From Candidatus Heimdallarchaeota archaeon (lineage in GTDB: Archaea > Asgardarchaeota > Heimdallarchaeia > Heimdallarchaeales > Heimdallarchaeaceae): 64,000 bases of DNA. A program made the position numbers and the translations under genes. Positions 22,101 to 41,307 of this stretch are shown here, one piece after another. The stretch is from positions 96,001 through 160,000 of the forward strand of contig JAEOTE010000007.1 of assembly GCA_016839945.1 (NCBI GenBank), read 5' to 3'. Position 1 is the stretch's first letter. Each line of letters begins with the position of its first letter. The notes below the pieces were generated by a model. It made no database searches. It had not been told where the DNA came from and saw only the letters and a list, made by a program, of their open reading frames with translations.

Positions 22101-25100
22101 TTTCTTTGTGAACAATTCTTTAACATCGCTTTCCTCTATGTATTGATCTTTGGATATATAATTAGCTATTATACCTTCTTTTGATGCTAAGTAGTCTCCT
22201 AAGAATCCAACAATATTTGCTTTTTCTGTAGCATCACTTGTTTTCATTAAATCTCGAAAAGTTACTATTCCAGAATCTAAATAGTTGCTTTTTATTTCAT
22301 TTAGATTCTTTTGATTGATTTTTGGATAATAAAGGACAGAAGTGTTATAGACTTCTTCTGCTTTATTTTGAATTTGTTTAATCTTTTTCTCTGAAACTAA
22401 CCAGTCGTAAATTGTGTTATTCATTAAATCCTCGAGATTGTAAATTCCTATAGATTTCAGATAATTTCTGTCTTGAGCTGATAGGAAGAAAATTTCTTTC
22501 AAGTTTTGTTCTGCAACGGAATCTATTCGTTGAACAATCGAATCTACTTTGAAATTCTTAATAGTATTTTGAATAGTTGTGACTTTTACTTTTGAAGTAG
22601 TTGCAATAACTTTAGGAGATAGATAGAAGATATCTGCAATAATATTAACACCTGCAGATTTCATTTTCTCTAAATCTTTAGGATCAAAATCTAGAAAGCG
22701 TAGATTCGCCAATAAATATGGAGTAATTTTCTTGAAAATGACTTCATCATCTTTGAATGTAGGTGATGTCAATATTGATTTGTATGAAGAATATCCTTTG
22801 TTTGATAAATCAACTTCTAATTCGGATAATGGTTCTTTAAATCCCTCTTCTTTTATACCTTTTATTAACGAGAGAGAGAGAATAATTTCATCTTGAATAT
22901 TCTTTGGTAATTTATTAAGGAATATCAAATGCTCAATGATGGTTGTGAACCCTTTTTCATAACAATAATCTAGTGACTCTTTTGTTATTGAGGATAAATA
23001 GCTGATATTATTGGATAATTGACTTCTGTAGTCATCAACTTCTTTTCCTTTTACTTTACTATTAGTTACGATATGACTAACAGGAACGAAGAAAAGATGC
23101 TCAACTGTTGTTATACCTATTTGAAGGAGAGAAGTTGCTGTCTTCTTTGGTAATCCCAACATTTCAATTGAGATACCAAACTTATCAATTTTCTTCAGGT
23201 TTTTAACAAGATAATCTGGTTCTTCTTTCTGTTTTGTAATAAGCTTACTAAAACTTGCTGGCCAATTCTTCTGAGGTATAGCTAACAAATCGTTATATGT
23301 TGTTATATTACTATTTAACAAGTCTTTAATTTCTGTATCTTTCAGCTTTAATGATTTTCCAATTAACGTTATTGGGGTTAATAAAATAGAGATGAGTTTT
23401 ACAAGATTTTTCTTTTCCTCAATAGGTATTGGTATTAAATCAAGATTAAGCTCTGATGCTTGAACTAGAGATACACAACCATACTCGGAAAGAATGGTTT
23501 TGGTTTCCTTTGTTATTTCAGAGAATAGGCTTAAATCAAGACCTATTAATTTTACATTTTCTTCTAATGATTTAATATCAATAGTTGTTTTAATGGTCCT
23601 TATTTTTTCTTCTGCAACATTGATTAGTTTGGCTAAGAGTGGAGCTGGAATGAGAAGGAATTGGTAAAGGTTTCGAATGCCATTGTGTTTTAGTTTTTCT
23701 ATTTGTTTGGAAGTTAGGTTACCTATATAGGATAATGGAATACTTTTTAGTGATAGAAGTAGAGGGCAAACTTCTGAGAGTAATTCTCTTTTTTCTACAA
23801 TCTTACTATCTAGTGATAAAAGCTCATCTAGATAGAGTATTTTTTCATCCTTTAATCTCTTAATAAGAGCTGAATCTGAAACAATCTTAATATCAGAGAG
23901 TTTGATCGCCCATTCTGGAGGGCTTATCTGTATAACTATACTATTAAGAACCTCTACTATTTTAGAATGCAGATCATGATTTTCCTCTTTCTCTGATAAA
24001 CATAATAATCCTGATACAATGTTGTTACAATCGCTTTGAGACAAAATATTCAATTGTGCAATGTTAAGCTCAACGTTAGAAATGAGCCATGAAATTGGCT
24101 TAAACATATTTGAAGTGATTATTCTGATTAATGATTTCTCGATATCTCCAAAATCAAAAACTGGGTGAGGTATGAAATCTACTAATAATAGAGCACTTGA
24201 TAATCCATATTTCATAAATTGTTCTTCTGCTTTATTTGGAAAGGAGAGAGCATGATCAATATAGTATGAAAATGTTTCTGACATTCTTGTACTCAAATTA
24301 AATTCTCTTTGGAATATTCTTATTTGCTTTGCTACAGCTTTTGGTATACCAATTATTGTGTTGACATTTGTTGAGAGAAGTTCAATAACATGTTTAATAC
24401 CATTATTCCATAGAACTCCTTTAGAAGAAATATCAAAACCTGGTAATGCAAGAACATTCAAACACAGAAAGCTAACTAATTGTTCAATAAATGCTATGCT
24501 TGAGATTTTTTCTATTCTTTCAGATTCTGATAGTTGTAGCAGTGCATCTGGGATAAAACCAAATATATCTTCTACAGCTTTTTTTGTTGGATCGAATTCA
24601 AGAGATTTAAGCAAGTTGATTATAGGTTCGTTAAGGGTTAATGTTCTACCTTTTGAAAGTGTGAAAGTGCCTTTCCTAGCTGAACTTATGGTTTTTGGAA
24701 TTGAACCATTCAAGGCTCGTTTCAAATCCTTATCTGAACAATTAAAGAGATCAATCAACCTCAGAATTCCTTCACTAGTTAAGTTTAGTTTCTCCTCTGA
24801 AGATAACTCTGAAATTCGGTAAATTGAGATGTGACACGCGTTTAGAAAATCTCTCATATAGTCCCCAGAGACACTCAATGTAGGATATGCTTGATAATTT
24901 GAACTATACAAATCTTGAACATGTATTTTTCCAGATTTAAGTAGAGAATTAATTTTTCCCTTTGATAAAACAAAGAAGTTTACTAACTCGACACCTTTTC
25001 GTTTAACTTCTTTCATCAAATTAGAAGGAGTGATTTTGTCCAAGTATGTTTGCACTTTTTTCTCTGACATGTTTAGTAAAAGAGAGATTGTAGAAACATC

Positions 25101-28100
25101 CTCTGTAATAAAGGAGAGGATATCACCTACACCTGAATATATAAGCTTCATTACATGATGATTATCTAAACCAATAAAAGCTACAGAAGAGCGATATAGT
25201 TGCACTTCTCTAAAGATATCTAATCGAACTAGAGCAGGACGAGATTCTCTTATTTCTTCCATTCTTGATATAAAGTCTTGTACGGAGTTGATACCTATAT
25301 CTAGTAGTTTTTCGAGATAATCTTCCTCAATTGAAGGACAAACAGTAAGAGGTATAGCAGAACTAATTCTTCTTTCTGATAACTCATCGAATGATATGAG
25401 ATCTAGTGCATGAAACTCTTTGTATATTGGATTTTGCGTAATTGTAAATAACTCATCTCTATTCAATAAAGCAAGATCTATAACGGAATTTATTTCATGA
25501 TACTCCAGACGTTTAATTTCATCATAAGATAGAAAGCCTATGAATCGGATTGAGCCAGATAAGAGTTCTTTTGCTTTCTTATATACGTCAACTTGAAGTA
25601 TTTCAGAGATACCTAACAAAGATGCTGAATAGAAGAGAGTTTCAATATCTGTAATCCCTAAATCTTTTAGCTCATCTAGTTTTTTCTCTGGTATTAGTTC
25701 TGATGGTCTTATTAAGTGAGATTGTGATAAACGGAAGGACACAATATCGGTGTAGGTTAGACCTTCTTTTATTTCTCTTATTTGTTTCTGGGAAAAACCA
25801 GAGATTTCTGAGAGTTGCTTTTCTGGAAGTGAGAAGAAATCAATCAATGTATTAATTGAAGATTTGCTCAACTTGAGAGTAAGTTCTCTTGGAAGCCCCA
25901 TGGAAGCTATTGGGATTGCTAATTCCATTATTAGTTTATTAAGAGAGTCAGTCTCCATTAAACTTGAGAAGAAAGGCGAGAGGGCAGAATGTTCCTCCAG
26001 ATTTATTTCAAATACATCACCAATTATGACGTTTTTGTATTCTTCTCTACGAGCTTTTCTGATCTTAGTGAAGAAGGGTGTGATTCTAAGAGGTAACTCT
26101 AAAATTGATCGAATTAATGTTAGATTATAATGATCTGTAAGGTATTGTTTGTCTTTACCAGTTAAGTCTTTTATAACTTTTGGATCAGTAATAACATCTG
26201 ATAACGTTTTATTTTCTACTTCTTGAATAACCCTGTTGAAATATGATGAATTATATACAGATGCAGGTAGTTTAGCGAAGTAATGGAAAGCTTGCATTAC
26301 TATTATTTTTGAAGAATATGTAGAAACAACTCTGTAAAGCACTGGGTCTTTAAGATCTATATCAGGAATGAAAAGTAATTGGTAAACATAATGGATATCA
26401 TTTTGTTCTAAAACCTCTAATGAAAATTCTGAAATCTCTGTAAAAATCTTCAAAGGTAAGGTGAGGTATTTCTTAACAGCTGATATCTTTATCCACAATT
26501 CTGGATTAGAGAAATAATACTGTTCTTCTATAGTATAGAATATTTCTTGAATTGTTTGGAATCTTTCAAAGTGGAATATTGAATCTTTACTCAATAATCT
26601 TTGTTCAAGTTTATCAAACAATTGAGTTTCAAAAGCAAAAATACCCTTTTGTTCATACATTGCTTGAATGCTTGAGGATGTCAGAGAAGTTATTATACTT
26701 TCAGCATCCTTTGGAGAGATTTTTATGAGTTTGCTTAGTTTTTGAGATGATGCAAGAATAAACTCAGATATTGTTTTTATTCCATTTTCTCTTAGAATTT
26801 CTGTTTGACTAAATGAGAGCGATGGTAAGAAATAAACAGGTAGTGAGAAGTAGCCAAATATATCTGAAAAGTCTAAAGCACTTTTTATTGTTTCAAATCT
26901 TTCATCTGGTATTCCTGTTTTTTCCATCAGAACTTCAGGAGAGGATAACATAAAACCAAGTAAAGTCCTTATTTTTGCTTTTTCTAATAGTTCTATGATT
27001 TCAGGATCTAGCATATCAGAAATATGATCCAAAGATAGATTCAAGATAGCTTTAAAGGATTCAATAACATCCCATGGTAAAATTTCCTCATTCCACTTAT
27101 CTTTTGAAGTTGAGAAGTATAAATCCTCAATTGTCATTATGTTATTTTCATCCAACACTCTGACAATTCTAGGTTCTAATATTCCTAATTCAGAAAGGTC
27201 AATTCCAGTATCACTTATTCTAACATTCCTTTGAAGAAGTATAGCTTCTTCATTATCTACTCCTAAGAAAGAAGCAATATCTTCAGATTTACTTACTAGT
27301 AAATCAATAATTTTAGTGATTCCATTATTTCTCAAAATGTTGAGTTGTTGGGTTGTCAAGGTTCTAGTTTGGACCTCTTCTATTTCTTGTGTTTCTTCGG
27401 ATTCTTCAACTTGAACAGTTTTCTTGATGATTTTCTCCCATGTTACTAGTGTTAAAGGAGACCTCAGTAGCTTTCTGAACTTATCAATGACATTCCAGTT
27501 AACTACTGCTGAAGAAAAAGTGAGAGGGTGGGCTAAGTAAAAAATCTTATCCACTGTATCATAGCCAGAAAGTATTAGTGATACAATTTCGTGTGAAGAA
27601 AATCTCTCTGATTCTTCGTATTCAAATGATATTAGAGAAGTATATTTATTTCCTGATTTTTCAAAGAAATGAGTACCTTTTTTCTCAATTGCGAAAACAT
27701 CTATTAATTGCTGGGTTTCTTGAGTAGACCTTACTAAAGTAGCTGCTAACTCATCAATAGTATATTCAAATAATTGATGAATAGCTGTTATCCCTCTGTT
27801 CCTTAATTTATCAAAATCTTCAAGAGTTAACTTACTTATTCTAGAAATTGGTAAACCTAGAGTTTGAACGAATTCATCATATTCACTAATTAGTAAGATT
27901 TCCTTACTAAATTGATCAGTTTCTGAAAATGTTCTATTCTTGATATTATTGTGAAGCTCAATAACAAGTTTTCTTTCTTTAGCAGTGTTTAACTCAGATT
28001 CAATAATTTCTGGAATAAGATCTAAAAATTGTCTTACTGTTACAATATTTCTTAATTTCAAACGAAGAAGAGCTTCTGTAAGCAGAGATAAATCCTTGAA

Positions 28101-31100
28101 TTTGTCTGGATATAGTTGAGTAAGTTCGATTATTTCCATATTCGCTAATTGATTTAAATGTCGAATATTTTCCCAAAAACCTGTATTCAATGTTGGTTTT
28201 TCAGTAGGGTAAACACTGTATAGATCTTGGATTGTTAGGTTATGTTTTTCTATGAATTGAACTAATCTTGGATATTGGTTACTAAGTAAACTCAAACTCT
28301 TTCCAAATTCTGTTCTATTCTTTTTTACTTCTTCTTCACTTATTGATTGTTTTAAATCCTTTACCCTTTCTTCTGATATGTTTAATACATCAGATAAATC
28401 AGAATTAGACCAGATTGAGAACCTGCCAATACAGTTTATTCCTATTTCTTGCAATAAATATGATTGCCTTCTTAATGAAGGAAATGCAAAAGATATAGGA
28501 GTTAATAAAAGATTTGCAGTTTCTAGATATGTTCTTTTTGCTTCTCCTGTTAGATTGTAAGCTTCAGGAGGATTGTAAAAAATTTCCTCAATAGATACTA
28601 TTCCTGCAGTTTTTAGTGTTTCTTGATGTTTTATCCATTTGAATATTGGAGTTCCAAGACTCTTTTTTATTCTCTCAACATCTTTTTTTCTCAAACCTAA
28701 CTTTCTTAATTGAGGTGATGGAAATGCTAAGAATGCAGTAGTTGTAAAAATTTGAAGATTAACTAATTGTTGCTCAATATCCTTTGGTATTACTTTAACG
28801 TGAGACAAATCTTTATCTTTCTTTGACTCTCGAATGTGAGATATTAATTTGTGTTTTGATTCCTTGAGTAGTAGATCACCTATCAATTTGTAATCTCTTT
28901 TCAAAATTGATGCTGTGGGTAAAGAGATTAGGTTAGTAAGAGTCTTTATACCTTTTTGAGATAGAACCTTTATGGCTTCTGTTTCCTCTTCCCTAAGTAT
29001 TTCATCAGAAATTAACTCAAATTTAGATAGTTCAATAGATTCTGAGGATTTGACTAGAGTATCTAGAAAGGTATTGTACAAATTCCTCTCTAGTTCCTTT
29101 ATTACAACAAGATCATCTAGTTTAGCATTAATTAAATCCTCAATTGTTTTTATTTTTCTTCTATGAAAAGCGTTCTTAGTATAAGCATCTGTCCAATCAG
29201 GTTTCATCTTAGTTACATTGGTCTTAGAAAATGTAGGAAACTTATCACATAGTTGAGAAAAAATATTTTGCAGGTAATTAACTAAAACAGCTGTTACTTC
29301 TGTTTGATAGTTTACTGAATATGGTAATTTTGTTTGGTAAAGAAATTCTTCAATGGTTGTATCTTGAGATATCAAACCTTTAGAATTATCTTTTAGATAC
29401 TCAAAAGTTGGAAATAGTGTATCTATTTTTATGTCATCAACTTTGGTGAGTGAAGCCAGAAGTTGTTTTCTTTTTTCTGATTTAGCTTTACTTGTTTTAT
29501 CCTTGGTTAGTAAGTACTGATGAAGGAGCTGTTCTTTTTTATTTTCGAAAAGTTTCTCTAGTAATCCAGTAACTGTTTGTAGTTTGTTAAAATCTGTAGC
29601 GAAATAATGGTAACTGTTTTGTATCCATCTTCGATATAAAGCCTCTTTTAATGTGATTATAGTTTTTTCATTTTGAGTAAATCTTCTTTCTATAGTTCTA
29701 CTTACAAAGAGTTTAGGATCAAAACTAGGGCTCATTCCCTCTCTATCAAGTTCAGATATCGTTCTAAGTTTGATATTGTAGATATCTTGTTTAGTAAGTT
29801 CTAACAGTTTTGCTATATTATCAGATGGTGTTATGAGAAAATCAGAAATAGATTCAATATTGTTTGTTCGAAGAACTGATTGAATTCTTGATGGACACCA
29901 TACATTAGCACCAAATAATCTTCTTCCCAAAGGCATGAAGAGCTTAACTTTTTTTGTTGCACCATGAGCCAAGGCCGCAGCAATTCTGTCAGTTTCTAAC
30001 CTAAAATCAGTATAATTAACTGCTTCATCTTCTAAAATTTTTGTTAGATTATCTATGATTATTGGTGCAGATCTTACAAAGCGTGATAATCTTGCATGCT
30101 CTCTTCTTCTTCTTTTAGCTCTGCTTAAAAATGTCTTTAGTCTTCTCCCCAACTGCATTAATGCTAATCGTATCTCTTCCTCAATCTCAGGAACAATGGA
30201 TATATATTCTTTACTTGTTTCTGGAAAAGGAATCTTAGTACTTACTACTGATACAGCTACAGCTAGAGGATCAGATTGCCTTGTTAACCCATATTCATTC
30301 CATCTTATTGAAGAAACAGTATGAGAAATAACATCGTTCCCTGCTCCAAATATGAGTGGGATACGATTTGCGTACCTATAAATTATTTTATTATCTTGAA
30401 CGGTAGCTCCCTTTACTTGCGAAGCTTCATTTACTCCCCCTCCATAACCTATTGCTACTTCTACAACAAAGGGATGACCAGAATAAGCTTTAGGAGCTCT
30501 TGTTACAGCTTCTACAAATTTAGGTTCCAGTTCTTTTTCTAAACCCCTCCTTAATCTATTCGATCCTAATGGTGATAAAGCAGTACCTTTTGGATCATCA
30601 AACTGAAATATTCTATCTCTTTTTCTTTTAACATCTTTCGCTTCTTGGTAAGCTTTTACAAAACCTTCATGAACTATTCTTCTGATTTCGTGAGAGGTAA
30701 TATCTTTTGGAGATTTGTTTGGATCAATCTCTAAAAGTTGGAAGAAACCTTCTGCTATTTCCTCATTTACTCCCATGAATTGTGTTGCTAGAAATTGCTT
30801 GAGTGTTTTGCTTTGACTTGCAGTTAATTCTGCCTTGAACTGAGTAATATCACACCCCCATGGATGAATTTTAACTGGTTGAGGAGGGGGAGGCATATCA
30901 TCTACAACACTAAGAAAGTCCAGATCTTCATATTCACCTTCTTTATCTGCAGGAACTTTGATTTTAAAACTGGAATAAGGGGTAATAATTGCTAATTGCT
31001 TAAAATATTCTTTTACGCTATTCTTAGCAAGCCTCCATGCTCCTGTAAAAGTGATTGATATTTCTGTTCCAGGTTCTTCAAGATAGTTTGGATCTCCTGG

Positions 31101-31637
31101 TAGGTACTCACGTTGTTCCATGATTACAGGTTCGTTCTTTTCAAGATTTATCATTAAATGAAGCTCATGGGTAATATCATCCATAAAGTATCTGCTTCGT
31201 ATTTTTGCAGGTAAGTCAACAGATGACATAGAGTATAGCAAACACATTTTTGCTCCTAAACCAAAACGACCTCGTGTTTGAATTACTCCGTATTTTGTTC
31301 CAGTCAATACTCTCCCAAAAAGTTCAGCAATCTGGTGTCCAGGAACTCCTATCCCATTATCTTTACAGGTTAGTTGTAGAAAATCTAGATGCTTTTCTAA
31401 TTTTCTGTATTGCGTAACATCAAGCAATTCATTTATTTCTCTGCTGGAAAGTTTTCTTAAGTCTAAATCAATAACAGGATTAATTCCTCTTTTTTCTGCT
31501 GCATCTAGTCCATTCTCAACTAACTCTCTGATACTTGTGAAAACAGCTCTCATTGAATTACCAAAACCAGCAATGGCTCTGTTTTCATTAAAGAAAGCAG
31601 CAGCTGACATTTTTTTTGTAACTGTATCTTCTGACAC
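19125..31637 (-). CDS. top6B: Giant DNA topoisomerase VI subunit B fused to a ~3500-aa array of HhH-like repeats
   Basis: First ~540 aa: FFNENRAIAGF, RELVENGLDA, KDNGIG, TRGRFGLGAK, PGTEI, H2TH, RYANRIPL, STKIPFPETSKEYI. Uninterrupted 12.5-kb ORF from GTG 31637. Confidence 0.92.
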   Translation of the reverse strand: MSEDTVTKKMSAAAFFNENRAIAGFGNSMRAVFTSIRELVENGLDAAEKRGINPVIDLDLRKLSSREINELLDVTQYRKLEKHLDFLQLTCKDNGIGVPGHQIAELFGRVLTGTKYGVIQTRGRFGLGAKMCLLYSMSSVDLPAKIRSRYFMDDITHELHLMINLEKNEPVIMEQREYLPGDPNYLEEPGTEISITFTGAWRLAKNSVKEYFKQLAIITPYSSFKIKVPADKEGEYEDLDFLSVVDDMPPPPQPVKIHPWGCDITQFKAELTASQSKTLKQFLATQFMGVNEEIAEGFFQLLEIDPNKSPKDITSHEIRRIVHEGFVKAYQEAKDVKRKRDRIFQFDDPKGTALSPLGSNRLRRGLEKELEPKFVEAVTRAPKAYSGHPFVVEVAIGYGGGVNEASQVKGATVQDNKIIYRYANRIPLIFGAGNDVISHTVSSIRWNEYGLTRQSDPLAVAVSVVSTKIPFPETSKEYISIVPEIEEEIRLALMQLGRRLKTFLSRAKRRRREHARLSRFVRSAPIIIDNLTKILEDEAVNYTDFRLETDRIAAALAHGATKKVKLFMPLGRRLFGANVWCPSRIQSVLRTNNIESISDFLITPSDNIAKLLELTKQDIYNIKLRTISELDREGMSPSFDPKLFVSRTIERRFTQNEKTIITLKEALYRRWIQNSYHYFATDFNKLQTVTGLLEKLFENKKEQLLHQYLLTKDKTSKAKSEKRKQLLASLTKVDDIKIDTLFPTFEYLKDNSKGLISQDTTIEEFLYQTKLPYSVNYQTEVTAVLVNYLQNIFSQLCDKFPTFSKTNVTKMKPDWTDAYTKNAFHRRKIKTIEDLINAKLDDLVVIKELERNLYNTFLDTLVKSSESIELSKFELISDEILREEETEAIKVLSQKGIKTLTNLISLPTASILKRDYKLIGDLLLKESKHKLISHIRESKKDKDLSHVKVIPKDIEQQLVNLQIFTTTAFLAFPSPQLRKLGLRKKDVERIKKSLGTPIFKWIKHQETLKTAGIVSIEEIFYNPPEAYNLTGEAKRTYLETANLLLTPISFAFPSLRRQSYLLQEIGINCIGRFSIWSNSDLSDVLNISEERVKDLKQSISEEEVKKNRTEFGKSLSLLSNQYPRLVQFIEKHNLTIQDLYSVYPTEKPTLNTGFWENIRHLNQLANMEIIELTQLYPDKFKDLSLLTEALLRLKLRNIVTVRQFLDLIPEIIESELNTAKERKLVIELHNNIKNRTFSETDQFSKEILLISEYDEFVQTLGLPISRISKLTLEDFDKLRNRGITAIHQLFEYTIDELAATLVRSTQETQQLIDVFAIEKKGTHFFEKSGNKYTSLISFEYEESERFSSHEIVSLILSGYDTVDKIFYLAHPLTFSSAVVNWNVIDKFRKLLRSPLTLVTWEKIIKKTVQVEESEETQEIEEVQTRTLTTQQLNILRNNGITKIIDLLVSKSEDIASFLGVDNEEAILLQRNVRISDTGIDLSELGILEPRIVRVLDENNIMTIEDLYFSTSKDKWNEEILPWDVIESFKAILNLSLDHISDMLDPEIIELLEKAKIRTLLGFMLSSPEVLMEKTGIPDERFETIKSALDFSDIFGYFSLPVYFLPSLSFSQTEILRENGIKTISEFILASSQKLSKLIKISPKDAESIITSLTSSSIQAMYEQKGIFAFETQLFDKLEQRLLSKDSIFHFERFQTIQEIFYTIEEQYYFSNPELWIKISAVKKYLTLPLKIFTEISEFSLEVLEQNDIHYVYQLLFIPDIDLKDPVLYRVVSTYSSKIIVMQAFHYFAKLPASVYNSSYFNRVIQEVENKTLSDVITDPKVIKDLTGKDKQYLTDHYNLTLIRSILELPLRITPFFTKIRKARREEYKNVIIGDVFEINLEEHSALSPFFSSLMETDSLNKLIMELAIPIASMGLPRELTLKLSKSSINTLIDFFSLPEKQLSEISGFSQKQIREIKEGLTYTDIVSFRLSQSHLIRPSELIPEKKLDELKDLGITDIETLFYSASLLGISEILQVDVYKKAKELLSGSIRFIGFLSYDEIKRLEYHEINSVIDLALLNRDELFTITQNPIYKEFHALDLISFDELSERRISSAIPLTVCPSIEEDYLEKLLDIGINSVQDFISRMEEIRESRPALVRLDIFREVQLYRSSVAFIGLDNHHVMKLIYSGVGDILSFITEDVSTISLLLNMSEKKVQTYLDKITPSNLMKEVKRKGVELVNFFVLSKGKINSLLKSGKIHVQDLYSSNYQAYPTLSVSGDYMRDFLNACHISIYRISELSSEEKLNLTSEGILRLIDLFNCSDKDLKRALNGSIPKTISSARKGTFTLSKGRTLTLNEPIINLLKSLEFDPTKKAVEDIFGFIPDALLQLSESERIEKISSIAFIEQLVSFLCLNVLALPGFDISSKGVLWNNGIKHVIELLSTNVNTIIGIPKAVAKQIRIFQREFNLSTRMSETFSYYIDHALSFPNKAEEQFMKYGLSSALLLVDFIPHPVFDFGDIEKSLIRIITSNMFKPISWLISNVELNIAQLNILSQSDCNNIVSGLLCLSEKEENHDLHSKIVEVLNSIVIQISPPEWAIKLSDIKIVSDSALIKRLKDEKILYLDELLSLDSKIVEKRELLSEVCPLLLSLKSIPLSYIGNLTSKQIEKLKHNGIRNLYQFLLIPAPLLAKLINVAEEKIRTIKTTIDIKSLEENVKLIGLDLSLFSEITKETKTILSEYGCVSLVQASELNLDLIPIPIEEKKNLVKLISILLTPITLIGKSLKLKDTEIKDLLNSNITTYNDLLAIPQKNWPASFSKLITKQKEEPDYLVKNLKKIDKFGISIEMLGLPKKTATSLLQIGITTVEHLFFVPVSHIVTNSKVKGKEVDDYRSQLSNNISYLSSITKESLDYCYEKGFTTIIEHLIFLNKLPKNIQDEIILSLSLIKGIKEEGFKEPLSELEVDLSNKGYSSYKSILTSPTFKDDEVIFKKITPYLLANLRFLDFDPKDLEKMKSAGVNIIADIFYLSPKVIATTSKVKVTTIQNTIKNFKVDSIVQRIDSVAEQNLKEIFFLSAQDRNYLKSIGIYNLEDLMNNTIYDWLVSEKKIKQIQNKAEEVYNTSVLYYPKINQKNLNEIKSNYLDSGIVTFRDLMKTSDATEKANIVGFLGDYLASKEGIIANYISKDQYIEESDVKELFTKKTKTTKIKSILDLITTLYQKEDSLSDLGLKIEQTFSKPISSLAVLTKADLQILEDKSIYTIGDLIIKPISSWMILSPAKLKDKILEITSSLTYKKIETDVKKKVQLSRVKIFDSETKKEIQKHYSTMDDLIFALNKETFTFSKSLANKIKRILKLPIELLLLPDVTIKSWKNIQNYVKNLEEFYLLTNKELASILLLKQAEVEKIRYSLTSSNFGSHPVIKESKIFSAKDIAILNQRSIKYYSDLFDEEVSLDKIPNYLLDKIKVFEKLVLKDLVSKTEYSLNLLDLAYLSMNLNKISVTKKQREDIQNAINSIFNKGITLMQVLNLESKDQKLDMSDSSIEYLLLLQKHEKELYNKTISKLHSKISKKYNELSYHLKRTIILLQPNRLKVDIISKLPYRSIDELLLEDYNKIKSQIPDPVFLRNLRNISLITLKELEGSLTSIPKDLLSGSNISILKKGFILSVEEALVFNKQAKSKTSSVWKTSDSLKNMVETDLFSLPPVRENKKIYDLMNKMKLQTVFDFLIYCKSLSEIEYETTCTSLLPKLSSTRVERMMSSEQKRLSSFIKDKEILSFLRKEDIRTIGILLEYIESKDPKDYSSEIVKIIEKLRAPMLIFINQPRLLEKFHNEGIIQVIDFVSIPDIRKAISVSLTEQEQAIVKSLQDKMNSQLVNETLKSKSYSVKKIGLFDANIRKLLIKSGYTTIAHLNVSEELIVKTSKLNSIQVSRIKRNLDLPFYYLSDIISDNPQSVAELHKNNIHTLWDIFAQTAQSLSKITGIQVSQLRTYFSNFTQDSIKDAEKEVVLIRKTHPFLSEELITQLNKAGIKTIQQLVFPEPSIVKNPLLEEQGVKDLKEFLEKPLRNLEVESEARNQITVLGVKTIKEFVVYPSTNMDEKTNLSYLSIKNLKNRLPKAKLKPKKKKPVKTAAKTPSKSSTATKSKTVTKPKVVIKQTATIPKATKGKQTTLLDVSQKNSKSNTSKSTSQNKNKEVK
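19380..29920 (-). repeat. Protein-level array of roughly 50 degenerate L-x-x-x-G-I-x-T-I-x-x-L (RadA-NTD/alpha-CTD-like HhH) modules within top6B
   Basis: Examples: VLSQKGIKTLTNLI, TLKTAGIVSIEEIF, KLRNRGITAIHQLF, ILRNNGITKIIDLL, ILRENGIKTISEFI, ELKDLGITDIETLF, KLKHNGIRNLYQFL, QLNKAGIKTIQQLV. Spacing ~55-80 aa; count by eye. Confidence 0.8.
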
Positions 31638-31801: not shown

Positions 31802-34800
31802 TTATTTCTTTTTCAATTTAAATTCTGGAGAAGTTCTATGAAGTACAACTGAAGTTATAGCAAAACCTATTGTAACAAAGAATAATGCACCAAAAGCTCC
31901 TATAGTTCTTGAAGTATCAACTTTATCTATTTCATCCAAGAATTGACCTTTTATGTCATCATAATATACTTCAGTAGCTATAGTTCTGTCATACTGCCAG
32001 AATAGACTACTCATGTCACCAGCAAAACCTGGATTTCCTTGATGCCATGTAGGATATTGATGAACTTTATCAACATGCATTGGATTACTGCCATATTTTG
32101 ATGGATTTAGGAGTGAGAACATTTCTACGTGTTGTTCAGCTCTAGAGTTATAGTCTAATCTGTCCTTTCTATCAACAACAGTTCCAGTTTCTCCTTCTAC
32201 TAGCATTTCAAGCTTGTGTTGAGGATCAGTAGTTCTTCCAGGTAAGGAGTTTGTTAAATGCACATCAGAAGGTTTCAAACCCATATTATGCATTTGATCC
32301 CAAATACCTGTGTAGATAAAGGTTGTATTAATAAAATTAGCTGCGGTCATCCAATAGGTTTGTTCATTGTATGTTTCTTTTACTGGAAAATCAGATTGAC
32401 AGAAGTAATAAAACACTACTTCATCATAGTACAAAGCGTAATCGTTTGCTAGATAAACAAAAGGTCTAAAGAAAGATTCAAACCATTGATTTCGTTCTCC
32501 TCCTTCTATTTGAGGATAACCTATGAATGAATCATATGTTGAATTGTAAACTGCTTCTTCTTGTAAATAAGGCCAATATTCAAATTGAACTTTCGAATGG
32601 GCATACCAACATTCTAAGTATGTATGAAGCTCATCTTTATTTTCGAGAGTGAATGTTTCTGATACTGGTTCTATTTGGTAGTGGATTAAACCTTCAGAAT
32701 AATCTGCTAGGTAAAGTTCATTTCCATCTGCATAAACTCCATAAGCTTTTCCTAGGTGATCAGATCCATTAAGTCGATAAAGCTCCGATGGAGAGCTTTT
32801 TGATGACACATTAACTACTGTGAGCCCATCTTCTCCTTGTGTTAGGAAAACTTTGGTTGAATCAATGTAGAGATTATTGTAATATGATTCACTTGGATCG
32901 AAACCATACTTCCCTTCTAGTGTAAGGTCAGCTCCAATACTGAATATAAGTAATCCTTCTACTTCATCAAGTACATAGAGATATGAACCTTCAACCTTTA
33001 AATCAAGGATATTATTAAGTTCAGTGAAGTTTGCTGAATCATAATGCTGATACAGTTCATCAGGTTCGAAAGTCAGGCTGTCTAATCGGACGATATCTAT
33101 TCCATCAGTCCCCAAACCAACATAAGCATTTGTTCCACTTACAGCAATAGATAATGCATCTCCTGAAGTTTCATTAAATGTAGAAAATGTGTTACTTAGC
33201 GTACCATCATCTGAAATCCCTACAGATGTAATACCATACTCCCCATTGGCAATATAAAGATAATAAGTAGGACTAGTGGTGCCAAATAAACCATAATCAA
33301 TATCGTGCATATCAGCTCTTCCATAGTTAGTCCATTGTTCCAATTCTTCGATGAATACAGGTTCAGTTGCATTCAGGACTTCTAAACCTCGTTCTCCTTC
33401 AGTTGCATAAATAATAGAGTCAATAACTGTAAGTGAAGTTACTTCTCCTGAATAGTCTCCATATTGTCCTACTGCTAAGAAAAGTGGATGAGTTGTATTT
33501 ACAATTTTAATATCATTTTTACCTTCAATTACATATGCCATTCCGTCTTTAACAAAAACATCCATTGATTTTGATCTCTCAAAAGAAGGAATATTGCCAA
33601 TTGCCAAGATTTTACCTACATCTTGAATATTATTTACTCCAGTTCTATGAGCATAATAAAGATCGTTGTTCCAATCGACATCTGTTGATTCAAGAGTTTG
33701 ATTAACAATCAGTGGAAACTTTTTATTTCCTAGAAGGACATCTTCAACACCAGTTAACCATTCTAGTGTTGTTCTTCTACAAACGTATGAGATTTGATTT
33801 TCAAATAACCAGTTGAGTGAAGGTTTTCCTAAGAGGAAATTCATATATTCAGCAAATGATTTTGCATGAGTTTTTTCAATTTCAGTGTCAATACCATATA
33901 TATCTGTTAATAATTGCTCTACATCAACTATTAAATCATCAACAGCTGTATAATCCAACCCTCTAACTAGATCTAAGAAGAATTTAGCAGATCCTTTATC
34001 ACCAGTTAAAATTGAATAATCTTTACCATTATATGTAGCATTGTATAAGATCCTGTAACTTGTTGCTCTGTCAAAATCTAAATCTGGAAAAGCAGGACGA
34101 ACACTAATCCAATTGTGTGGTATGTAAGTTCCTATATCTATTAAATTTTCTTCGTTTGCAAAGGTTTGGTTTAATACAATAGAAGCTAAATCTTGATCGC
34201 TATAACCAAAACTATCTTTAAAACCAAGTAGTTCTTGTTGCAGAAGATAAGAAGCAACATAAGCTTGGAAACCGTATTCGGTTCCATTTCCAAGATGTTC
34301 TAGATAATAAGGCCACATATAATTGAAATTTAAAACATATTCGTTTCCAGTTAATTCTGATGAATCTTGGTTTAAGATATATTGTTTTCTTTTAGTAAAA
34401 ACAACATAATCATCTTGTCCCTCTACTGAACTAAATTCTTTAACGGTTTTGTTAATAATAACATCGAATGTTAAATCTCCTTGAACCGTTATGTATCCTA
34501 TACGAGCATTATAGTCTACAAATGCTTCCCTATCACTCACATTATAAAAAGTAAAAGTAGCTGTATTATAATATCTTGATTCATTGTTTTGAACTCCCAT
34601 ATACATCCAATCTGAAAAATCGTCGGATCCTGTATAGGGTACAATATCATCTTCACTAATTATTCCATAAGCAAAAATTCTTTCAGTAATCTCTGCCATG
34701 CTGATTTTTGATCTTAAAGGTAGTAAGATACCCATTGCTATTGAAGATCCTAATGTTACAATAATAATCATTGCTCCTAATGCGGTTCTTAATCTAGCTT

Positions 34801-34804
34801 GCAT
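31802..34804 (-). CDS. Two-TM CD36/LIMP-2-like protein with inserted LVIVD beta-propeller
   Basis: N- and C-terminal TM helices. CD36-like blocks FTFYNVSD, RRTTLEWLTGVEDVLL, HRTGVNNIQDVGKI, HKLEMLVEGETG...RLDYN, LFW. LVIVD-like repeats (AYVIEG..IKIVN, LYIANGEYGI, VFLTQGEDGLTVVNVS, LYLADYSEGL). Confidence 0.7.
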   Translation of the reverse strand: MQARLRTALGAMIIIVTLGSSIAMGILLPLRSKISMAEITERIFAYGIISEDDIVPYTGSDDFSDWMYMGVQNNESRYYNTATFTFYNVSDREAFVDYNARIGYITVQGDLTFDVIINKTVKEFSSVEGQDDYVVFTKRKQYILNQDSSELTGNEYVLNFNYMWPYYLEHLGNGTEYGFQAYVASYLLQQELLGFKDSFGYSDQDLASIVLNQTFANEENLIDIGTYIPHNWISVRPAFPDLDFDRATSYRILYNATYNGKDYSILTGDKGSAKFFLDLVRGLDYTAVDDLIVDVEQLLTDIYGIDTEIEKTHAKSFAEYMNFLLGKPSLNWLFENQISYVCRRTTLEWLTGVEDVLLGNKKFPLIVNQTLESTDVDWNNDLYYAHRTGVNNIQDVGKILAIGNIPSFERSKSMDVFVKDGMAYVIEGKNDIKIVNTTHPLFLAVGQYGDYSGEVTSLTVIDSIIYATEGERGLEVLNATEPVFIEELEQWTNYGRADMHDIDYGLFGTTSPTYYLYIANGEYGITSVGISDDGTLSNTFSTFNETSGDALSIAVSGTNAYVGLGTDGIDIVRLDSLTFEPDELYQHYDSANFTELNNILDLKVEGSYLYVLDEVEGLLIFSIGADLTLEGKYGFDPSESYYNNLYIDSTKVFLTQGEDGLTVVNVSSKSSPSELYRLNGSDHLGKAYGVYADGNELYLADYSEGLIHYQIEPVSETFTLENKDELHTYLECWYAHSKVQFEYWPYLQEEAVYNSTYDSFIGYPQIEGGERNQWFESFFRPFVYLANDYALYYDEVVFYYFCQSDFPVKETYNEQTYWMTAANFINTTFIYTGIWDQMHNMGLKPSDVHLTNSLPGRTTDPQHKLEMLVEGETGTVVDRKDRLDYNSRAEQHVEMFSLLNPSKYGSNPMHVDKVHQYPTWHQGNPGFAGDMSSLFWQYDRTIATEVYYDDIKGQFLDEIDKVDTSRTIGAFGALFFVTIGFAITSVVLHRTSPEFKLKKK

Positions 34805-34936: not shown

Positions 34937-36193
34937 TTAATTTTCGCTATTTTCTGCTCTTACTTTAATAAGATAGTTAGGTTTTTCCCATATAACATCC
35001 AAATCTGAAAGGTCTATGGTTCCCATACTCTCCTCATTTTCACCATAAATTTCTACAAAAATCTTCGAAAACAAATCATATTTACCCAAGATTTGATTTG
35101 GTAACATGTTACTTGTGAAAATTCCTCTAATAAGCGCACCATTTGTTCTCTTAGGAAGGATTGAGAACATTACATCAAGGTTCGAGTAATTTCTTCTAAT
35201 CTTCTGATATTCCTTTGTAATTAATCCTTGGTTACCTGGCTGGATTACTAGGAAACCTCTAGTGGATTGATCCTCTGTTATGAAGTTCCAAGCAAGTTTA
35301 TTATTTTCTATTAACTTCGATAATACAGGATTATTGTCATAAACATCGACTGAATATATTAAGCAAGGTCCTTTTGTTTCGTTGAAGATTCTTAGAAAAT
35401 TACTTAAATCTATATGGTAGAACTCTGAGGGTGTTTGTGATGCAATAAGAAGATCTGAAATAATATGAGCCTCTCTATCATATAGTTTAGATTTCAAGAT
35501 ATCTAAATCTACATTCGTATTGGCTTTTATTAAGCTATTTTCATCATACAAAATAAAGGGTACATCAATATCTGTTGATTCTTTCATTAACCTATGAATG
35601 GTTGTAAGAACATTGAATTCTTGGATTATCTCTATCTCATGTGGTGGAATATGAAAAGACAAGATAGGCTGAAGGTTTTTTTCTTTTAGGTATTCAACTA
35701 TTTTAGTTATTAACCCAATAGTAAAAGCATCGTTTTCTACAAATATGAAAATAAGAGAGGTATCTTTAAATTGTTTGTTTAATTCTTGTGTTACTTTTTC
35801 TTTATTCTCCTCAAACCATGCAATTCCTCTTGAAAAAGTATTTTCCAACAATTTCAATGTAGGAGTCTCAAGAAAAGGAATGTTAGCACCTAAATCTTGT
35901 GATAGGTTTGAACGAGAAATCAAAAGTGAGGACGGAAACTTATCTTTAATTTGATTATTCATCGCTTTAAGAATCTCAAACCCATAATTTTCAGTAAATA
36001 TTAAACCAGAGGAGATTTTATTAATCTCAGCTTCTACAAAAAGTGTGTCTGATGATTCGCTTCCAGATAATTGTTTATCTGTCGTTTTGCTTTGTTTTAT
36101 TATTGATTCAAAATTAAAACTATAAAGTGCATTATATTTTTCAGGAGGATCTCCCTCTATTTTTTTTCCTTTTTTTCTGAATAGCGCTTTCAT
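34937..36193 (-). CDS. Degenerate tubulin/FtsZ-superfamily paralog lacking the GGGTG loop
   Basis: Colinear similarity to 39142..40281: VPFILYDENSL vs CPVILFDNEKL; HIDLSNF vs NANLKDF; RGFLVI vs LGYLTI; IRGIFT vs IRGILT. Confidence 0.6.
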   Translation of the reverse strand: MKALFRKKGKKIEGDPPEKYNALYSFNFESIIKQSKTTDKQLSGSESSDTLFVEAEINKISSGLIFTENYGFEILKAMNNQIKDKFPSSLLISRSNLSQDLGANIPFLETPTLKLLENTFSRGIAWFEENKEKVTQELNKQFKDTSLIFIFVENDAFTIGLITKIVEYLKEKNLQPILSFHIPPHEIEIIQEFNVLTTIHRLMKESTDIDVPFILYDENSLIKANTNVDLDILKSKLYDREAHIISDLLIASQTPSEFYHIDLSNFLRIFNETKGPCLIYSVDVYDNNPVLSKLIENNKLAWNFITEDQSTRGFLVIQPGNQGLITKEYQKIRRNYSNLDVMFSILPKRTNGALIRGIFTSNMLPNQILGKYDLFSKIFVEIYGENEESMGTIDLSDLDVIWEKPNYLIKVRAENSEN

Positions 36194-37705: not shown

Positions 37706-37788
37706 AATAAAGTTCTCAATTAGTAATAAAATTCTTCCGCAAAAAGATAGAAAGCATTAAAAATAAGCGAGTGCTATATTTTTTTGTT

Positions 37789-39141
37789 ATGGACTCCAAT
37801 TCTTCAAAACCTGTTTCTGTTAAAGCAAATTATGTTGTTCCAGATGACGTTGAACTCCCCAATTTTGATTTCGAGAACCTTATAATAGAGCACTATAAGA
37901 AATATCCTAGAACAGCTGCTCTAGTGGAGAATCCCACATATGTTAAAGCTATAATGCAACCTTTTAGAAAGTTTTACTTGGTCCCTTTAGCTTTATTTAA
38001 ACTAAAACTAAACACAATTCTTTCCTTGAGATGGAAAGAATATCTCAAGTTATGGATATATGTTGTAATAATGTTTATACCAACATTACTTTTTACAATC
38101 ATACCTTTAGAAAAAGCTTTTGAAGGTTTTTCAACAAGTAGATGGATTGCTGATATACTTTTTAATGTAGGAATACCTATACTTATTGCTATTCTACTCT
38201 CATTGTTTTATTTGAAATACACACATGATGGATTTTTGGGATTAACTTTGGCAAAAAGAATTGAATGGCTAGAGAAACCTGTAAGGGAATATTATACAAA
38301 ATATTATGATCGAAAACTTCCTAAGAACCCATTTATTATTTTAGCATCTCTTGCTACAGGAATTGGAATACAAATTCCATTGATACAGTTTTCAAATGCA
38401 AATGGGTATAATGCAGCTGCGGCTTTTGGAATCATTGCTTGTATCTTTAACCCTGTACTATTCTATATTTTCTTCGTAGCCTCTTATTATATGATTATCA
38501 ACACAAGATTGTATTCAAAAGTTCTCAAACCTATTAAGGATAGAATTAAAACATATATGAAAGAATATGGAACTCTATTGAACAGAGAAAATTATGACAT
38601 TATTTGGTCTTTGGGAGACAAATGGAGTAAAGGTCGTTCAATTCGTCAACTAGAAAACATTCCAACAGCAGGTATTCTATCTACTTTGATAATAATAATA
38701 GCTATGGGGATGGGTAATGCAAATGAACTAATTTATGCCTTAGCTGGTGAAATGCCTTTAGTTAATTTTGAATTTCTTTTCATCCATGTGGGGCAACCTG
38801 TAACAGTACTAGTAGTAACGATTTCAGCGCTTGTAGCTGCATTAATGGTATTAGTCGTTTTGTTACCTCTAATTATATTTCATTCTAGAATGAAGAAATT
38901 CAAAATCAAAGCTTTAATGGAACTTGATAATTATATTTTCGCAAATGTTGTTGAGTTTGAAATAAGGTATGCTGAAGTGGCTAAGCAAGAAAATGTAACA
39001 ATGTTTCAGCTTCGTGAATACATAGCTTCAATGCGAACGTTTCCTATTTCAACTTCAAAGTTGTTTAGAACAATAATGGCGGTAATTATCTGGATCTTGA
39101 ATATGTTGAAGATTATCAGATCAGTAGGAGGAGGATTATAG
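37789..39141 (+). CDS. Multi-pass membrane protein of unknown function
   Basis: About 7 hydrophobic segments; its stop codon directly abuts the ATG of the tubulin-like gene. Confidence 0.75.
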   Translation: MDSNSSKPVSVKANYVVPDDVELPNFDFENLIIEHYKKYPRTAALVENPTYVKAIMQPFRKFYLVPLALFKLKLNTILSLRWKEYLKLWIYVVIMFIPTLLFTIIPLEKAFEGFSTSRWIADILFNVGIPILIAILLSLFYLKYTHDGFLGLTLAKRIEWLEKPVREYYTKYYDRKLPKNPFIILASLATGIGIQIPLIQFSNANGYNAAAAFGIIACIFNPVLFYIFFVASYYMIINTRLYSKVLKPIKDRIKTYMKEYGTLLNRENYDIIWSLGDKWSKGRSIRQLENIPTAGILSTLIIIIAMGMGNANELIYALAGEMPLVNFEFLFIHVGQPVTVLVVTISALVAALMVLVVLLPLIIFHSRMKKFKIKALMELDNYIFANVVEFEIRYAEVAKQENVTMFQLREYIASMRTFPISTSKLFRTIMAVIIWILNMLKIIRSVGGGL

Positions 39142-40281
39142 ATGTCTTGGTTAAAACGCAAACTTTTCAAGAAGAAGATTTCTGTAGCTATTATTGGAGT
39201 AGGTAATGCTGGATGTAGAATAGGAGAACAAATTATTCATCACCTTAGGGAGAGCAAAATCACAGTAAAATCATTAGCTATAAATCATGAAGATAATTTT
39301 CATCCAAAAATCAATAATTATTCAGATGAATTCTGGTTTGGATCAAAGAAGAATCTATCATCAAACTATGAGTTAGAAGATGCAATGAGTGATTTGAAGA
39401 AAAAGGAAATAGATTTACGAGACAAACTTGAGAAAGTTGTTTTTTACAAACGAGATGATAGAAGAAGTGATGATGATTTAGCTTTGCATCTTATTGTAGG
39501 AAGTGGAGGAGGTACTGGTAGTGCAGGATCTATGATTGCTAGTAATCTAATTACTGATATAGTAGGTGATCCCCCCACTGTAATCTTTGTAGTTCCTGAA
39601 AAAGATGAACCATCACTAGTTCAATATAACGCTGCAAAAGCTCTCTTCCACTTAGGATTCGACTTAAAAGGTCCTTATTGCCCAGTAATTCTCTTTGATA
39701 ATGAAAAACTATTGAATTTTTATTCAGATGAACAGATTGAGCAAGCTCTTGAAAAGAGTAATGAAATACTAGCAGAGACTTTAACAACTACAATTCTTGC
39801 TGCTTTACAAGAAAGCACTCATGAAGAGTATAATGCTAATCTCAAAGATTTCTTTAGCTCCTTCACAAGAGAAGCTAGAGGATTAGGAGTGATTGTTTCT
39901 CTTGACAAAGAATTTGAAACTTTAGAAATAGCTCAAAATATCAGATTTTCTGATCTTTTCTTCGGTGAATTAGATGAAAATTCAAGCTTGACAGCTGATG
40001 TAACAAGGGCAAAACTTGGATATTTAACAATTTCAACACCAACAACTTATCAATCAACGTTCGAAACAAGAAAAATAGTAAAGAAATTTGAAAGAGGAGA
40101 TATTAAAGCAGCTCTCAACTCGATAGATGAACCATTTCTTACAATTAGAGGAATCTTAACAGGTATTCATCCGGATTATGTTGATCGGTTCTGGGAAATA
40201 CTGGAAAAGGGAAGAGATAGCAGAAAAAATATTCTAGAAATTGAATCAAAAATAAGAGAATCCTATATAAGTTTAACATAG
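39142..40281 (+). CDS. Tubulin/FtsZ-superfamily GTPase (divergent, CetZ/FtsZ-like)
   Basis: T1 IIGVGNAGCRI, T4 GSGGGTGSAG, VVPEKDE...YNA, ILFDNEKL, T7-like NANLKD. Confidence 0.88.
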   Translation: MSWLKRKLFKKKISVAIIGVGNAGCRIGEQIIHHLRESKITVKSLAINHEDNFHPKINNYSDEFWFGSKKNLSSNYELEDAMSDLKKKEIDLRDKLEKVVFYKRDDRRSDDDLALHLIVGSGGGTGSAGSMIASNLITDIVGDPPTVIFVVPEKDEPSLVQYNAAKALFHLGFDLKGPYCPVILFDNEKLLNFYSDEQIEQALEKSNEILAETLTTTILAALQESTHEEYNANLKDFFSSFTREARGLGVIVSLDKEFETLEIAQNIRFSDLFFGELDENSSLTADVTRAKLGYLTISTPTTYQSTFETRKIVKKFERGDIKAALNSIDEPFLTIRGILTGIHPDYVDRFWEILEKGRDSRKNILEIESKIRESYISLT

Positions 40282-40332
40282 ACGAAAAGGAAATCTCTTA
40301 TAAACCACTTTGATGATAGAAAATTGAACATA

Positions 40333-41307
40333 ATGAGTGATAAGAGTATTTGCCCTAGTTGTAATAGGGAAATTAAACCTACATCAAAATTTTGTAAATT
40401 CTGTGGAGTAACACTGAAATCTTGCCCTTCATGTAATGAGTTTAATAAGGTGGAAGATGCTTTTTGTGGGTCATGTGGAGAAGATATTAGCAAATTGATT
40501 ATACCCATACCTCATAGAAAGGAAAGTGAAGATTCAGCTTATGCGCCAATAATTGAAGAAATAGAAGAAGGTGAAAAAAGACCAAAATTAGTAGTTTGGC
40601 CACCACAATATGCAGAGGCTAGACCACAAATACAACCAAAACCTACTCCTGAATTATTTGAAGAGGGAACCCAATATGAACCTACAAAAGTTCAATATCA
40701 GTATAGTAAAGTTAAACCAATTGGATTTTTAGGAGGACCATTACCAACTTCGAATGTTCTAAGTGTAACACTTGAAGCTTTTGGACTAGCGTTAGCTCTT
40801 GTGGCAGCTGGAATTGTGATTGTAAGCATTGGTTTTGCATTCTTCGAGTATCTAGTGTTTCCAGTAATAACTGGAATTTTGGGAGGAGCTCTACTCTTAT
40901 CCGCACCATTTTTTGGAATCTATTATGTGAGTTCTAACTGGCTTTACAAAGCTTTTCAAATCAAGAGACCTGTAAAAATAAGAACAGTAATCCTGAATTA
41001 TACATTAGGAACATTGTTATTTGCCATATTTGGTATGATGTTAGCACCAATCTTTATACAAGGAGGAGCACTAGCTATTACTTTTTCAGTAGTAGGTGGA
41101 ATAGTATATCTTATGGGATTAATAGTAATTCCATTAAAAGCATATCTTGCTGATTTGGTTTATGTTAAAGCTGCAATGAAGCATAGAGATAAAGAAGAGG
41201 AAGATAAAGCACAAGAAGAAAAAGACGTTGAAGAAATAGAGAAAAAAGAAGAGAAGGGAAAAAAGGAAGTTAAAACTTCTAAGAAGAAAAAGGAGAAGAA
41301 AAAGTAG
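40333..41307 (+). CDS. Double zinc-ribbon (DZR) membrane protein
   Basis: CPSC..FCKFCG...CPSC...FCGSCG, Pro-rich linker, 4 TM helices, charged tail. Confidence 0.8.
   Translation: MSDKSICPSCNREIKPTSKFCKFCGVTLKSCPSCNEFNKVEDAFCGSCGEDISKLIIPIPHRKESEDSAYAPIIEEIEEGEKRPKLVVWPPQYAEARPQIQPKPTPELFEEGTQYEPTKVQYQYSKVKPIGFLGGPLPTSNVLSVTLEAFGLALALVAAGIVIVSIGFAFFEYLVFPVITGILGGALLLSAPFFGIYYVSSNWLYKAFQIKRPVKIRTVILNYTLGTLLFAIFGMMLAPIFIQGGALAITFSVVGGIVYLMGLIVIPLKAYLADLVYVKAAMKHRDKEEEDKAQEEKDVEEIEKKEEKGKKEVKTSKKKKEKKK

Follow-up and report, generated by a model that had tools for sequence, protein, structure and literature searches.

A strongly diverged CD36-like membrane protein with an inserted beta-propeller in Heimdallarchaeaceae

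The locus and its CD36-like protein

The stretch of DNA under study, referred to as the window, comprises 64,000 nt of Candidatus Heimdallarchaeota archaeon (assembly GCA_016839945.1, contig JAEOTE010000007.1, positions 96,001-160,000, forward strand). On the minus strand of the window, at 31802..34804, a single open reading frame (ORF) with an ATG start encodes a CD36-like hairpin membrane protein of 1000 residues (P0001) into which a beta-propeller is inserted. CD36, SR-BI and LIMP-2, the established members of this family, have key roles in the uptake of lipids, in phagocytosis and in the biology of lysosomes. The G+C content is even at 0.30-0.34 over the whole window and shows no break at the CD36-like gene.

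A hydropathy scan (windows of 19 residues, Kyte-Doolittle score > 1.6) detects exactly two membrane-type segments in the protein, located at residues ~8-30 and ~967-990. They are flanked by tails of ~7 and ~10 residues, the N-terminal one of which (MQARLR) contains two arginines while the C-terminal one is rich in lysine. Since there are two hydrophobic segments only and both tails are basic, the protein is predicted to form a hairpin with both tails in the cytoplasm and ~930 residues outside the cell. The topology with one transmembrane segment at each end, which had been put forward in the original prediction made from the sequence of the window, is thus borne out, the more so as the structure model carries helices at both termini. 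The protein contains 15 NxS/T sequons and three cysteines, and because of this low number of cysteines the disulfides of the metazoan receptors are absent from it.

An AlphaFold2 model of the full-length protein, built on 34 relatives, has a mean predicted local distance difference test score (pLDDT) of 84 and a predicted template modelling score (pTM) of 0.77. Between the terminal helices it consists of strands at residues 78-160, a helical part at 164-335, strands at 341-403, an all-beta part at 408-726 and further strands at 727-943. The N-terminal transmembrane helix (~residues 8-30; 34715..34783, on the minus strand as are all segments given here) coincides with a model helix of residues 3-47 and aligns with the first transmembrane segment of Asgard and protist CD36 proteins; the C-terminal one (~residues 967-990; 31835..31906) coincides with a model helix of residues 945-991 and aligns with the second. 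The intervening part is divided into the N-terminal barrel strands of the CD36 domain (residues 50-163; 34316..34657), which harbour the motifs SDW and FxFYNVSD, an enlarged helical apex (residues 164-335; 33800..34315), a middle barrel segment (residues 336-407; 33584..33799) with the motifs RTxxEWLxGxxDxLL and TGxxNIxxVGxI, the inserted propeller (residues 408-726; 32627..33583) and a C-terminal barrel segment (residues 727-944; 31973..32626) with the motifs KPSDVHL and HxxxMxVEGETG...RxDRxxYN.

Comparison with CD36 sequences

Searches for relatives yielded ~40 full-length proteins with 38-86% identity, the named ones of which come from Heimdallarchaeaceae or Heimdallarchaeota, apart from a single one labelled Thorarchaeota. 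The comparison with the Pfam CD36 profile (PF01130) suggested in the original prediction gave a divided result. The window protein itself does not match at E <=10, nor does a search of the window's own genome with this profile return any match. In contrast, 21 of 34 family members match PF01130 at E <=1 and three of them, scoring 27.1-28.1 bits, exceed the cut-off of 26.5. These matches are co-linear with the profile and always fall into the same two places, residues ~105-268 corresponding to model positions 74-223 and residues ~870-910 to positions 361-402; profile positions 74-134 are covered by the N-terminal barrel strands and positions 361-402 by the C-terminal barrel segment. The actinobacterial PorA/DUF3068 profile (PF11271), closer grouping with which had been named as an outcome speaking against the CD36 assignment, is not matched at E <=1 by any of the 34 family members.

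Clear CD36 genes are present elsewhere in the phylum. A PF01130 search over 400 of its genomes found matches above the cut-off in 28 of them, reaching 238 bits and lying in ORFs of 600-1370 residues, where a large insert at model position ~135-155 divides the domain into two parts. Translated, these Asgard CD36 proteins (607-1367 residues) match PF01130 with E-values of 2e-51 to 2e-98 (175-330 bits). Among species-representative genomes, 28 loci of this standard type were found, all of them labelled Asgard; the search patterns were type-specific, and absence elsewhere is not implied. The standard genes reside at loci L013-L017, L004-L012 and L020-L047, and their inserts at the apex site carry no Pfam domain. 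Some genomes harbour two or more standard copies in tandem (e.g. G264:C33 and G274:C4). A profile built from the alignment of the Asgard CD36 proteins (A2) retrieved 7096 proteins at E <=0.001 from 1.84 billion representatives. Its best matches include protist proteins of 500 residues from Cavostelium, Diphylleia, Leptophrys, Phalansterium and Stygamoeba, and its E-values against protist CD36 reach down to 1e-118. The window protein is a divergent form of a family whose clear members lie in other Asgard lineages.

Comparison of the alignment of the window's family (A1) with A2 by hhalign, each E-value of which comes from a single profile-profile comparison, links all three barrel segments to the Asgard CD36 proteins. 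In terms of alignment columns, A1 3-193 pairs with A2 6-181 (E 6e-6 to 2e-5, probability 77-85%), A1 298-397 with A2 580-686 (E ~1e-4, 52-61%) and A1 751-1019 with A2 694-911 (E 9e-7 to 2e-6, 90-92%). Three co-linear matches are likewise obtained against protist CD36, with E-values of 1e-6 for the N-terminal barrel (probability 91%), 6e-5 for the middle and 5e-6 for the C-terminal segment. Within the aligned columns the motifs of the family pair in order with those of both Asgard and protist CD36, FxFYNVSD facing WNLTNP, KPSDVHL facing KPHFL and HxxxMxVEGETGxVxxRxDRxxYN facing HDTxxDVEPxTGxxMxAxxRLQxN, with SDW, RTxxEWLxGxxDxLL and TGxxNIxxVGxI as further paired motifs. Every motif pair that had been read from the sequence by eye, in the order typical of the family, is recovered in these columns.

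Fold of the extracellular part

Searches with the full 1000-residue model, by Foldseek against the PDB as well as by VIA-align, returned propellers only. As these swamped the searches, residues 36-407 were folded alone, giving a model with a pLDDT of 85. The top 13 Foldseek matches of this part in the PDB are all LIMP-2 or CD36 (probability 0.66-0.99), the probability dropping to 0.05 at rank 14. When it was compared by VIA-align with 48,161 solved chains, Z >=5 was reached by two only, namely LIMP-2 (4f7b_A; Z 8.3, 186 residues, 3.7 Å, chain residues 37-274) and CD36 (5lgd_A; Z 8.2, 188 residues, 3.5 Å, chain residues 35-238), the next best value being 4.3. The N-terminal half of the ectodomain, including the middle barrel segment, is thus predicted to adopt the CD36 ectodomain fold, i.e. 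an asymmetric beta-barrel with a helical apex. As regards the fold of this half, the comparison with these structures that had been proposed as a check came out in favour of the assignment, and sequence profiles and fold together make us highly confident that the window protein, for all its divergence, is a genuine relative of CD36, SR-BI and LIMP-2.

A shape search of the ESM Atlas with the N-terminal half returned a single row, an archaeal cluster of 514 members (TM-score 0.55 over 275 residues). This cluster consists mostly of proteins of ~910 residues from Thermoplasmatota, and 82% of it carries PF01130. CD36 proteins hence also occur outside the Asgard archaea. A feature-based search of the protein atlas with P0001 yielded no usable match.

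Helical apex and inserted propeller

The helical part between the N-terminal and the middle barrel strands, which is helical in the full-length model as well as in that of residues 36-407, measures 172 residues (164-335), somewhat less than the ~200 residues estimated originally, compared to ~48 residues between the equivalent anchors in protist CD36. It occupies the very site at which all Asgard CD36 proteins hold their large insert (Pfam position ~135-155; 240-870 residues). Within the family it is the best conserved part, 37% of its columns being at least 90% conserved, and it starts with a near-invariant stretch, NFNYMWPYY..FGNGTEYGFQAY. In animal CD36 proteins the apex is the ligand-docking site. 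Across eukaryotic class B scavenger receptors the same site has been described as evolutionarily labile (PMC10715195).

The all-beta part matches the Pfam LVIVD profile (PF08309) with 25.1 bits against a cut-off of 20.2, nothing besides LVIVD being found in the window protein with Pfam and NCBIfam, and 33 of 34 relatives match this profile too. VIA-align superposes residues 408-744 on seven-bladed WD40-type propellers with Z 27-29. The LVIVD propeller expected at about 32640-33580 is therefore present, with boundaries at 32627 and 33583. Its 319 residues are inserted after the strand carrying TGxxNIxxVGxI and before the conserved tryptophan of the following strand; in the hhalign comparison they lie within an interval of only seven positions in the Asgard CD36 profile, from 686 to 694. 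In contrast to the apex, the propeller shows the lowest conservation within the family, with 11% of its columns at least 90% conserved.

Apart from weak PorA matches within the CD36 part, eight other long CD36 proteins contain no further Pfam domain at E <=0.001, and it is at the apex site that they carry additional sequence. The propeller hence looks specific to the family of the window protein. A search for shorter relatives devoid of the propeller yielded fragments of the propeller-bearing family only.

Phyletic pattern and phylogeny

A search with the C-terminal part finds the propeller-bearing family in 29 of 30 genomes of the Heimdallarchaeaceae, with a single match in all but one, and in none of 52 genomes from the other six families of the class. 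Standard CD36, for its part, occurs in four of these other families, namely each of the three sister families within the order plus one more of the class, and also in another large family of the phylum. It is absent from the window's own family, where PF01130 gives weak matches only, those checked being genes of the propeller-bearing family.

A quick maximum-likelihood tree was computed from 328 shared columns, with rows from L013-L018 and P0085-P0176; it is unrooted and thinly sampled. In it, the propeller-bearing family is separated from the rest by a very long branch (2.8 substitutions per site). The best tree found is one constrained to join the family with the CD36 proteins of its own order, with a log-likelihood 7.7 above that of the free search and a p-value of 0.67 in the approximately unbiased test. 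We read phyletic pattern and tree as indicating that the propeller-bearing family is an accelerated local orthologue of Asgard CD36. The quick tree also unites the protist CD36 proteins in a clade (SH-like approximate likelihood ratio test, SH-aLRT, 95) which is sister to the CD36 proteins of the window's order with an SH-aLRT of 91, a value that is not strong for a quick search, while a second Asgard CD36 clade stands apart (SH-aLRT 98). As the tree is unrooted and thinly sampled, we regard the grouping of protists with the window's order as a lead and not as a result.

Genomic neighbourhood

The CD36-like gene is surrounded by a gene for a tubulin-like protein of 418 residues, a pyruvate kinase gene, the genes for a giant topoisomerase VI B subunit (Top6B) and for Top6A, and a further tubulin-family cluster. 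Its direct upstream neighbour is the co-oriented gene for the 418-residue protein (34937..36193, minus strand), not only in the window but also at the loci of the distant relatives L048 and L049. The 418-residue protein has no Pfam match; its language-model features are tubulin/FtsZ/TubZ-like (0.93) and BLASTP relates it to the tubulin-family protein of the window with an E-value of 5e-4. Relatives of 38-47% identity retain the arrangement with Top6B, pyruvate kinase and tubulin-like genes. At L048 the 418-residue gene and the CD36-like gene, lying between Top6B and pyruvate kinase, have been flipped together, a hint that the two form a unit. The link between them is purely positional. This neighbouring cytoplasmic protein is the only candidate partner for the CD36-like protein.

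Synteny of the window with the standard Asgard CD36 locus L020, whose neighbours encode a DUF6884 protein, QueC and a radical SAM protein, is not conserved. The case for the orthology proposed above consequently comes from phyletic pattern and tree and draws no support from gene order.

The giant Top6B gene (19125-31637, minus strand) encodes 4170 residues, its transducer part preceding a long series of HhH, RAD51D_N-like and RpoA-CTD-like repeats, and is followed by that of Top6A (17714-19123, minus strand). Giant Top6B proteins of 4186 and 4341 residues are also encoded at L048 and L049, respectively. On the plus strand, at 37771-41307, genes for a 456-residue protein without Pfam match, a tubulin-family GTPase (PF00091) and a DZR zinc-ribbon protein form a cluster which is likewise present at L048 and L049.

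Discussion

Taken together, the window protein is, with a probability of roughly 0.6, the Heimdallarchaeaceae version of an archaeal CD36-family surface protein that acts as a lipid conduit and has been elaborated by an enlarged apex and an inserted propeller. Homology, topology, domain layout and insertion points are observed, together with a phyletic pattern that points to an accelerated orthologue; tunnel, cargo and the role of the propeller are inferred. CD36-family proteins transfer fatty acids, cholesteryl esters and other lipids via a tunnel in their ectodomain. In the archaeal protein, the two membrane helices would hold a large extracellular barrel of the CD36 type at the cell surface, and by analogy with CD36, SR-BI, LIMP-2 and actinobacterial PgfA/LmcA this barrel would let hydrophobic molecules, e.g. 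lipids, travel between a partner bound at the distal tip and the outer leaflet of the cell membrane. The conserved, enlarged helical apex would then serve as docking site, while the propeller, spliced into the loop between two barrel strands, would probably provide an extra binding module for a surface, a glycan or a protein partner. For this more specific picture, a surface conduit for hydrophobic molecules with the apex for docking and the propeller for additional binding, we see about an even chance. The capture of lipids or particles, the function which the original prediction had offered for the protein, is likewise putative.

Among the known systems closest to the window protein are the eukaryotic class B scavenger receptors (CD36, SR-BI/SCARB1, LIMP-2/SCARB2, insect SNMPs and Dictyostelium Lmp; PF01130). 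Hairpin, short tails and the co-linear order of the motifs are common to both, and LIMP-2 (4F7B) and CD36 (5LGD) can be superposed on the N-terminal half of the window protein's ectodomain. A variable apex, as known across eukaryotes (PMC10715195), is a further common feature, but in the window protein it comprises 172 residues as opposed to the three-helix bundle of ~50 residues in the eukaryotic receptors. The archaeal host, a similarity below detection by Pfam and the 319-residue propeller after the TGxxNIxxVGxI strand further set the window protein apart. The standard CD36 proteins of the sister families, such as those of L013 (917 residues), L017 (607 residues) and L006 (775 residues), belong to the same phylum and order and share with it the hairpin as well as an enlarged apex at the same site. 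They differ from it in matching PF01130 with 175-330 bits, in lacking a propeller and in having all of their extra sequence (240-870 residues) at the apex site.

More distant is the likeness to the actinobacterial DUF3068/PorA proteins (PgfA/MSMEG_0317, LmcA; PF11271), prokaryotic envelope proteins for which a limited, structure-based homology to CD36 has been reported (PMC9678360). CD36 carries long-chain fatty acids, and DUF3068 proteins such as PgfA act in mycobacterial lipid trafficking (PMC9678360). These proteins belong to another host group and another type of envelope and possess no propeller; several Asgard CD36 proteins match PorA weakly over their C-terminal half, while the window's family does not. 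As to the propeller, the insert of the window protein passes the LVIVD cut-off (PF08309) and folds into seven blades as LVIVD-repeat surface propellers do, but it is nested in a loop of another domain instead of being free-standing or fused to a terminus.

Several observations weigh against the lipid-conduit interpretation. The window protein fails to match PF01130 even at an E-value of 10, and sequence searches of the PDB (phmmer, hmmsearch) give no CD36 match for the protein or its family. The Foldseek E-values behind the half-domain matches amount to only 0.02-0.35, and the C-terminal half owes its CD36 assignment to profile matches. No lipid-metabolism gene is found among the neighbours in the window or at L048 and L049. 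Finally, the strong acceleration of the sequence could reflect a change of function. Alternatively, a CD36-fold protein may have turned mainly into a receptor for adhesion or recognition, its propeller and apex binding partner cells, particles, envelope parts or viruses while the tunnel was lost or became irrelevant. We consider this the main competing explanation, albeit a rather unlikely one. It would account for the branch of 2.8 substitutions per site, which suggests altered constraints, and for the addition of an entire propeller of the binding type, which is the most variable part of the protein as expected of a surface facing a partner; the 15 sequons are typical of exposed archaeal surface proteins. 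Yet the barrel motifs, including the equivalent of VEPxTG...RLQxN, are kept across 34 sequences, and it is the apex and not the propeller that is most conserved. Besides, ligand binding and lipid transfer coexist in animal CD36 proteins.

An unrelated surface protein with two transmembrane segments and a propeller, resembling CD36 by chance or convergence, is very improbable. The missing direct matches to Pfam and PDB sequences and the modest single profile matches, with probabilities of 52-92%, would fit such a protein, but two different CD36 alignments are each matched by three independent segments in an unchanged order, CD36-family structures alone stand out in an exhaustive fold search, and the phyletic distributions of the family and of standard CD36 complement each other. 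We attach just as little weight to a recent horizontal transfer from a eukaryote or to contamination by eukaryotic DNA, instead of a native archaeal gene. The literature searched treats CD36 as a family of eukaryotes (PMC10715195), and the close match of the Asgard CD36 profile to protist CD36 might be taken to point in that direction. For the propeller-bearing family, however, this explanation is already contradicted by the presence of the gene, mostly as a single match, in 29 of the 30 Heimdallarchaeaceae genomes, by a gene order kept down to 38% identity and by the uniform G+C content. Moreover, the other Asgard CD36 proteins are much closer to eukaryotic CD36 than the window protein is.

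A literature search on CD36 or PF01130 in connection with Asgard or archaea found no paper on archaeal CD36, and a survey from 2023 follows the family back to the last eukaryotic common ancestor without mentioning prokaryotes (PMC10715195). The designation of the window protein as a candidate eukaryotic signature protein is too narrow, for the CD36 family is also present in Thermoplasmatota and has relatives in actinobacteria (PMC9678360). The family is thus not specific to Asgard archaea, and the function of the window protein is putative. One might go further and view CD36 as an old archaeal family of lipid conduits at the cell surface which eukaryotes inherited vertically from a Heimdall-like ancestor, the propeller form of Heimdallarchaeaceae being a remodelled receptor that couples the binding of outside surfaces or particles to lipid exchange. 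We consider this broader scenario unlikely on present evidence. If it were true, the uptake and phagocytic receptors found in eukaryotes would have a prokaryotic precedent in the propeller-bearing form.

The Asgard CD36 genes and the near-universal, remodelled orthologue of the Heimdallarchaeaceae give the CD36 family an archaeal history, and an entire propeller nested in a barrel loop represents an unusual architecture for this family. Their products are candidates for the means by which these archaea may exchange lipids or recognise partners at the cell surface, a matter that bears on models of eukaryogenesis.

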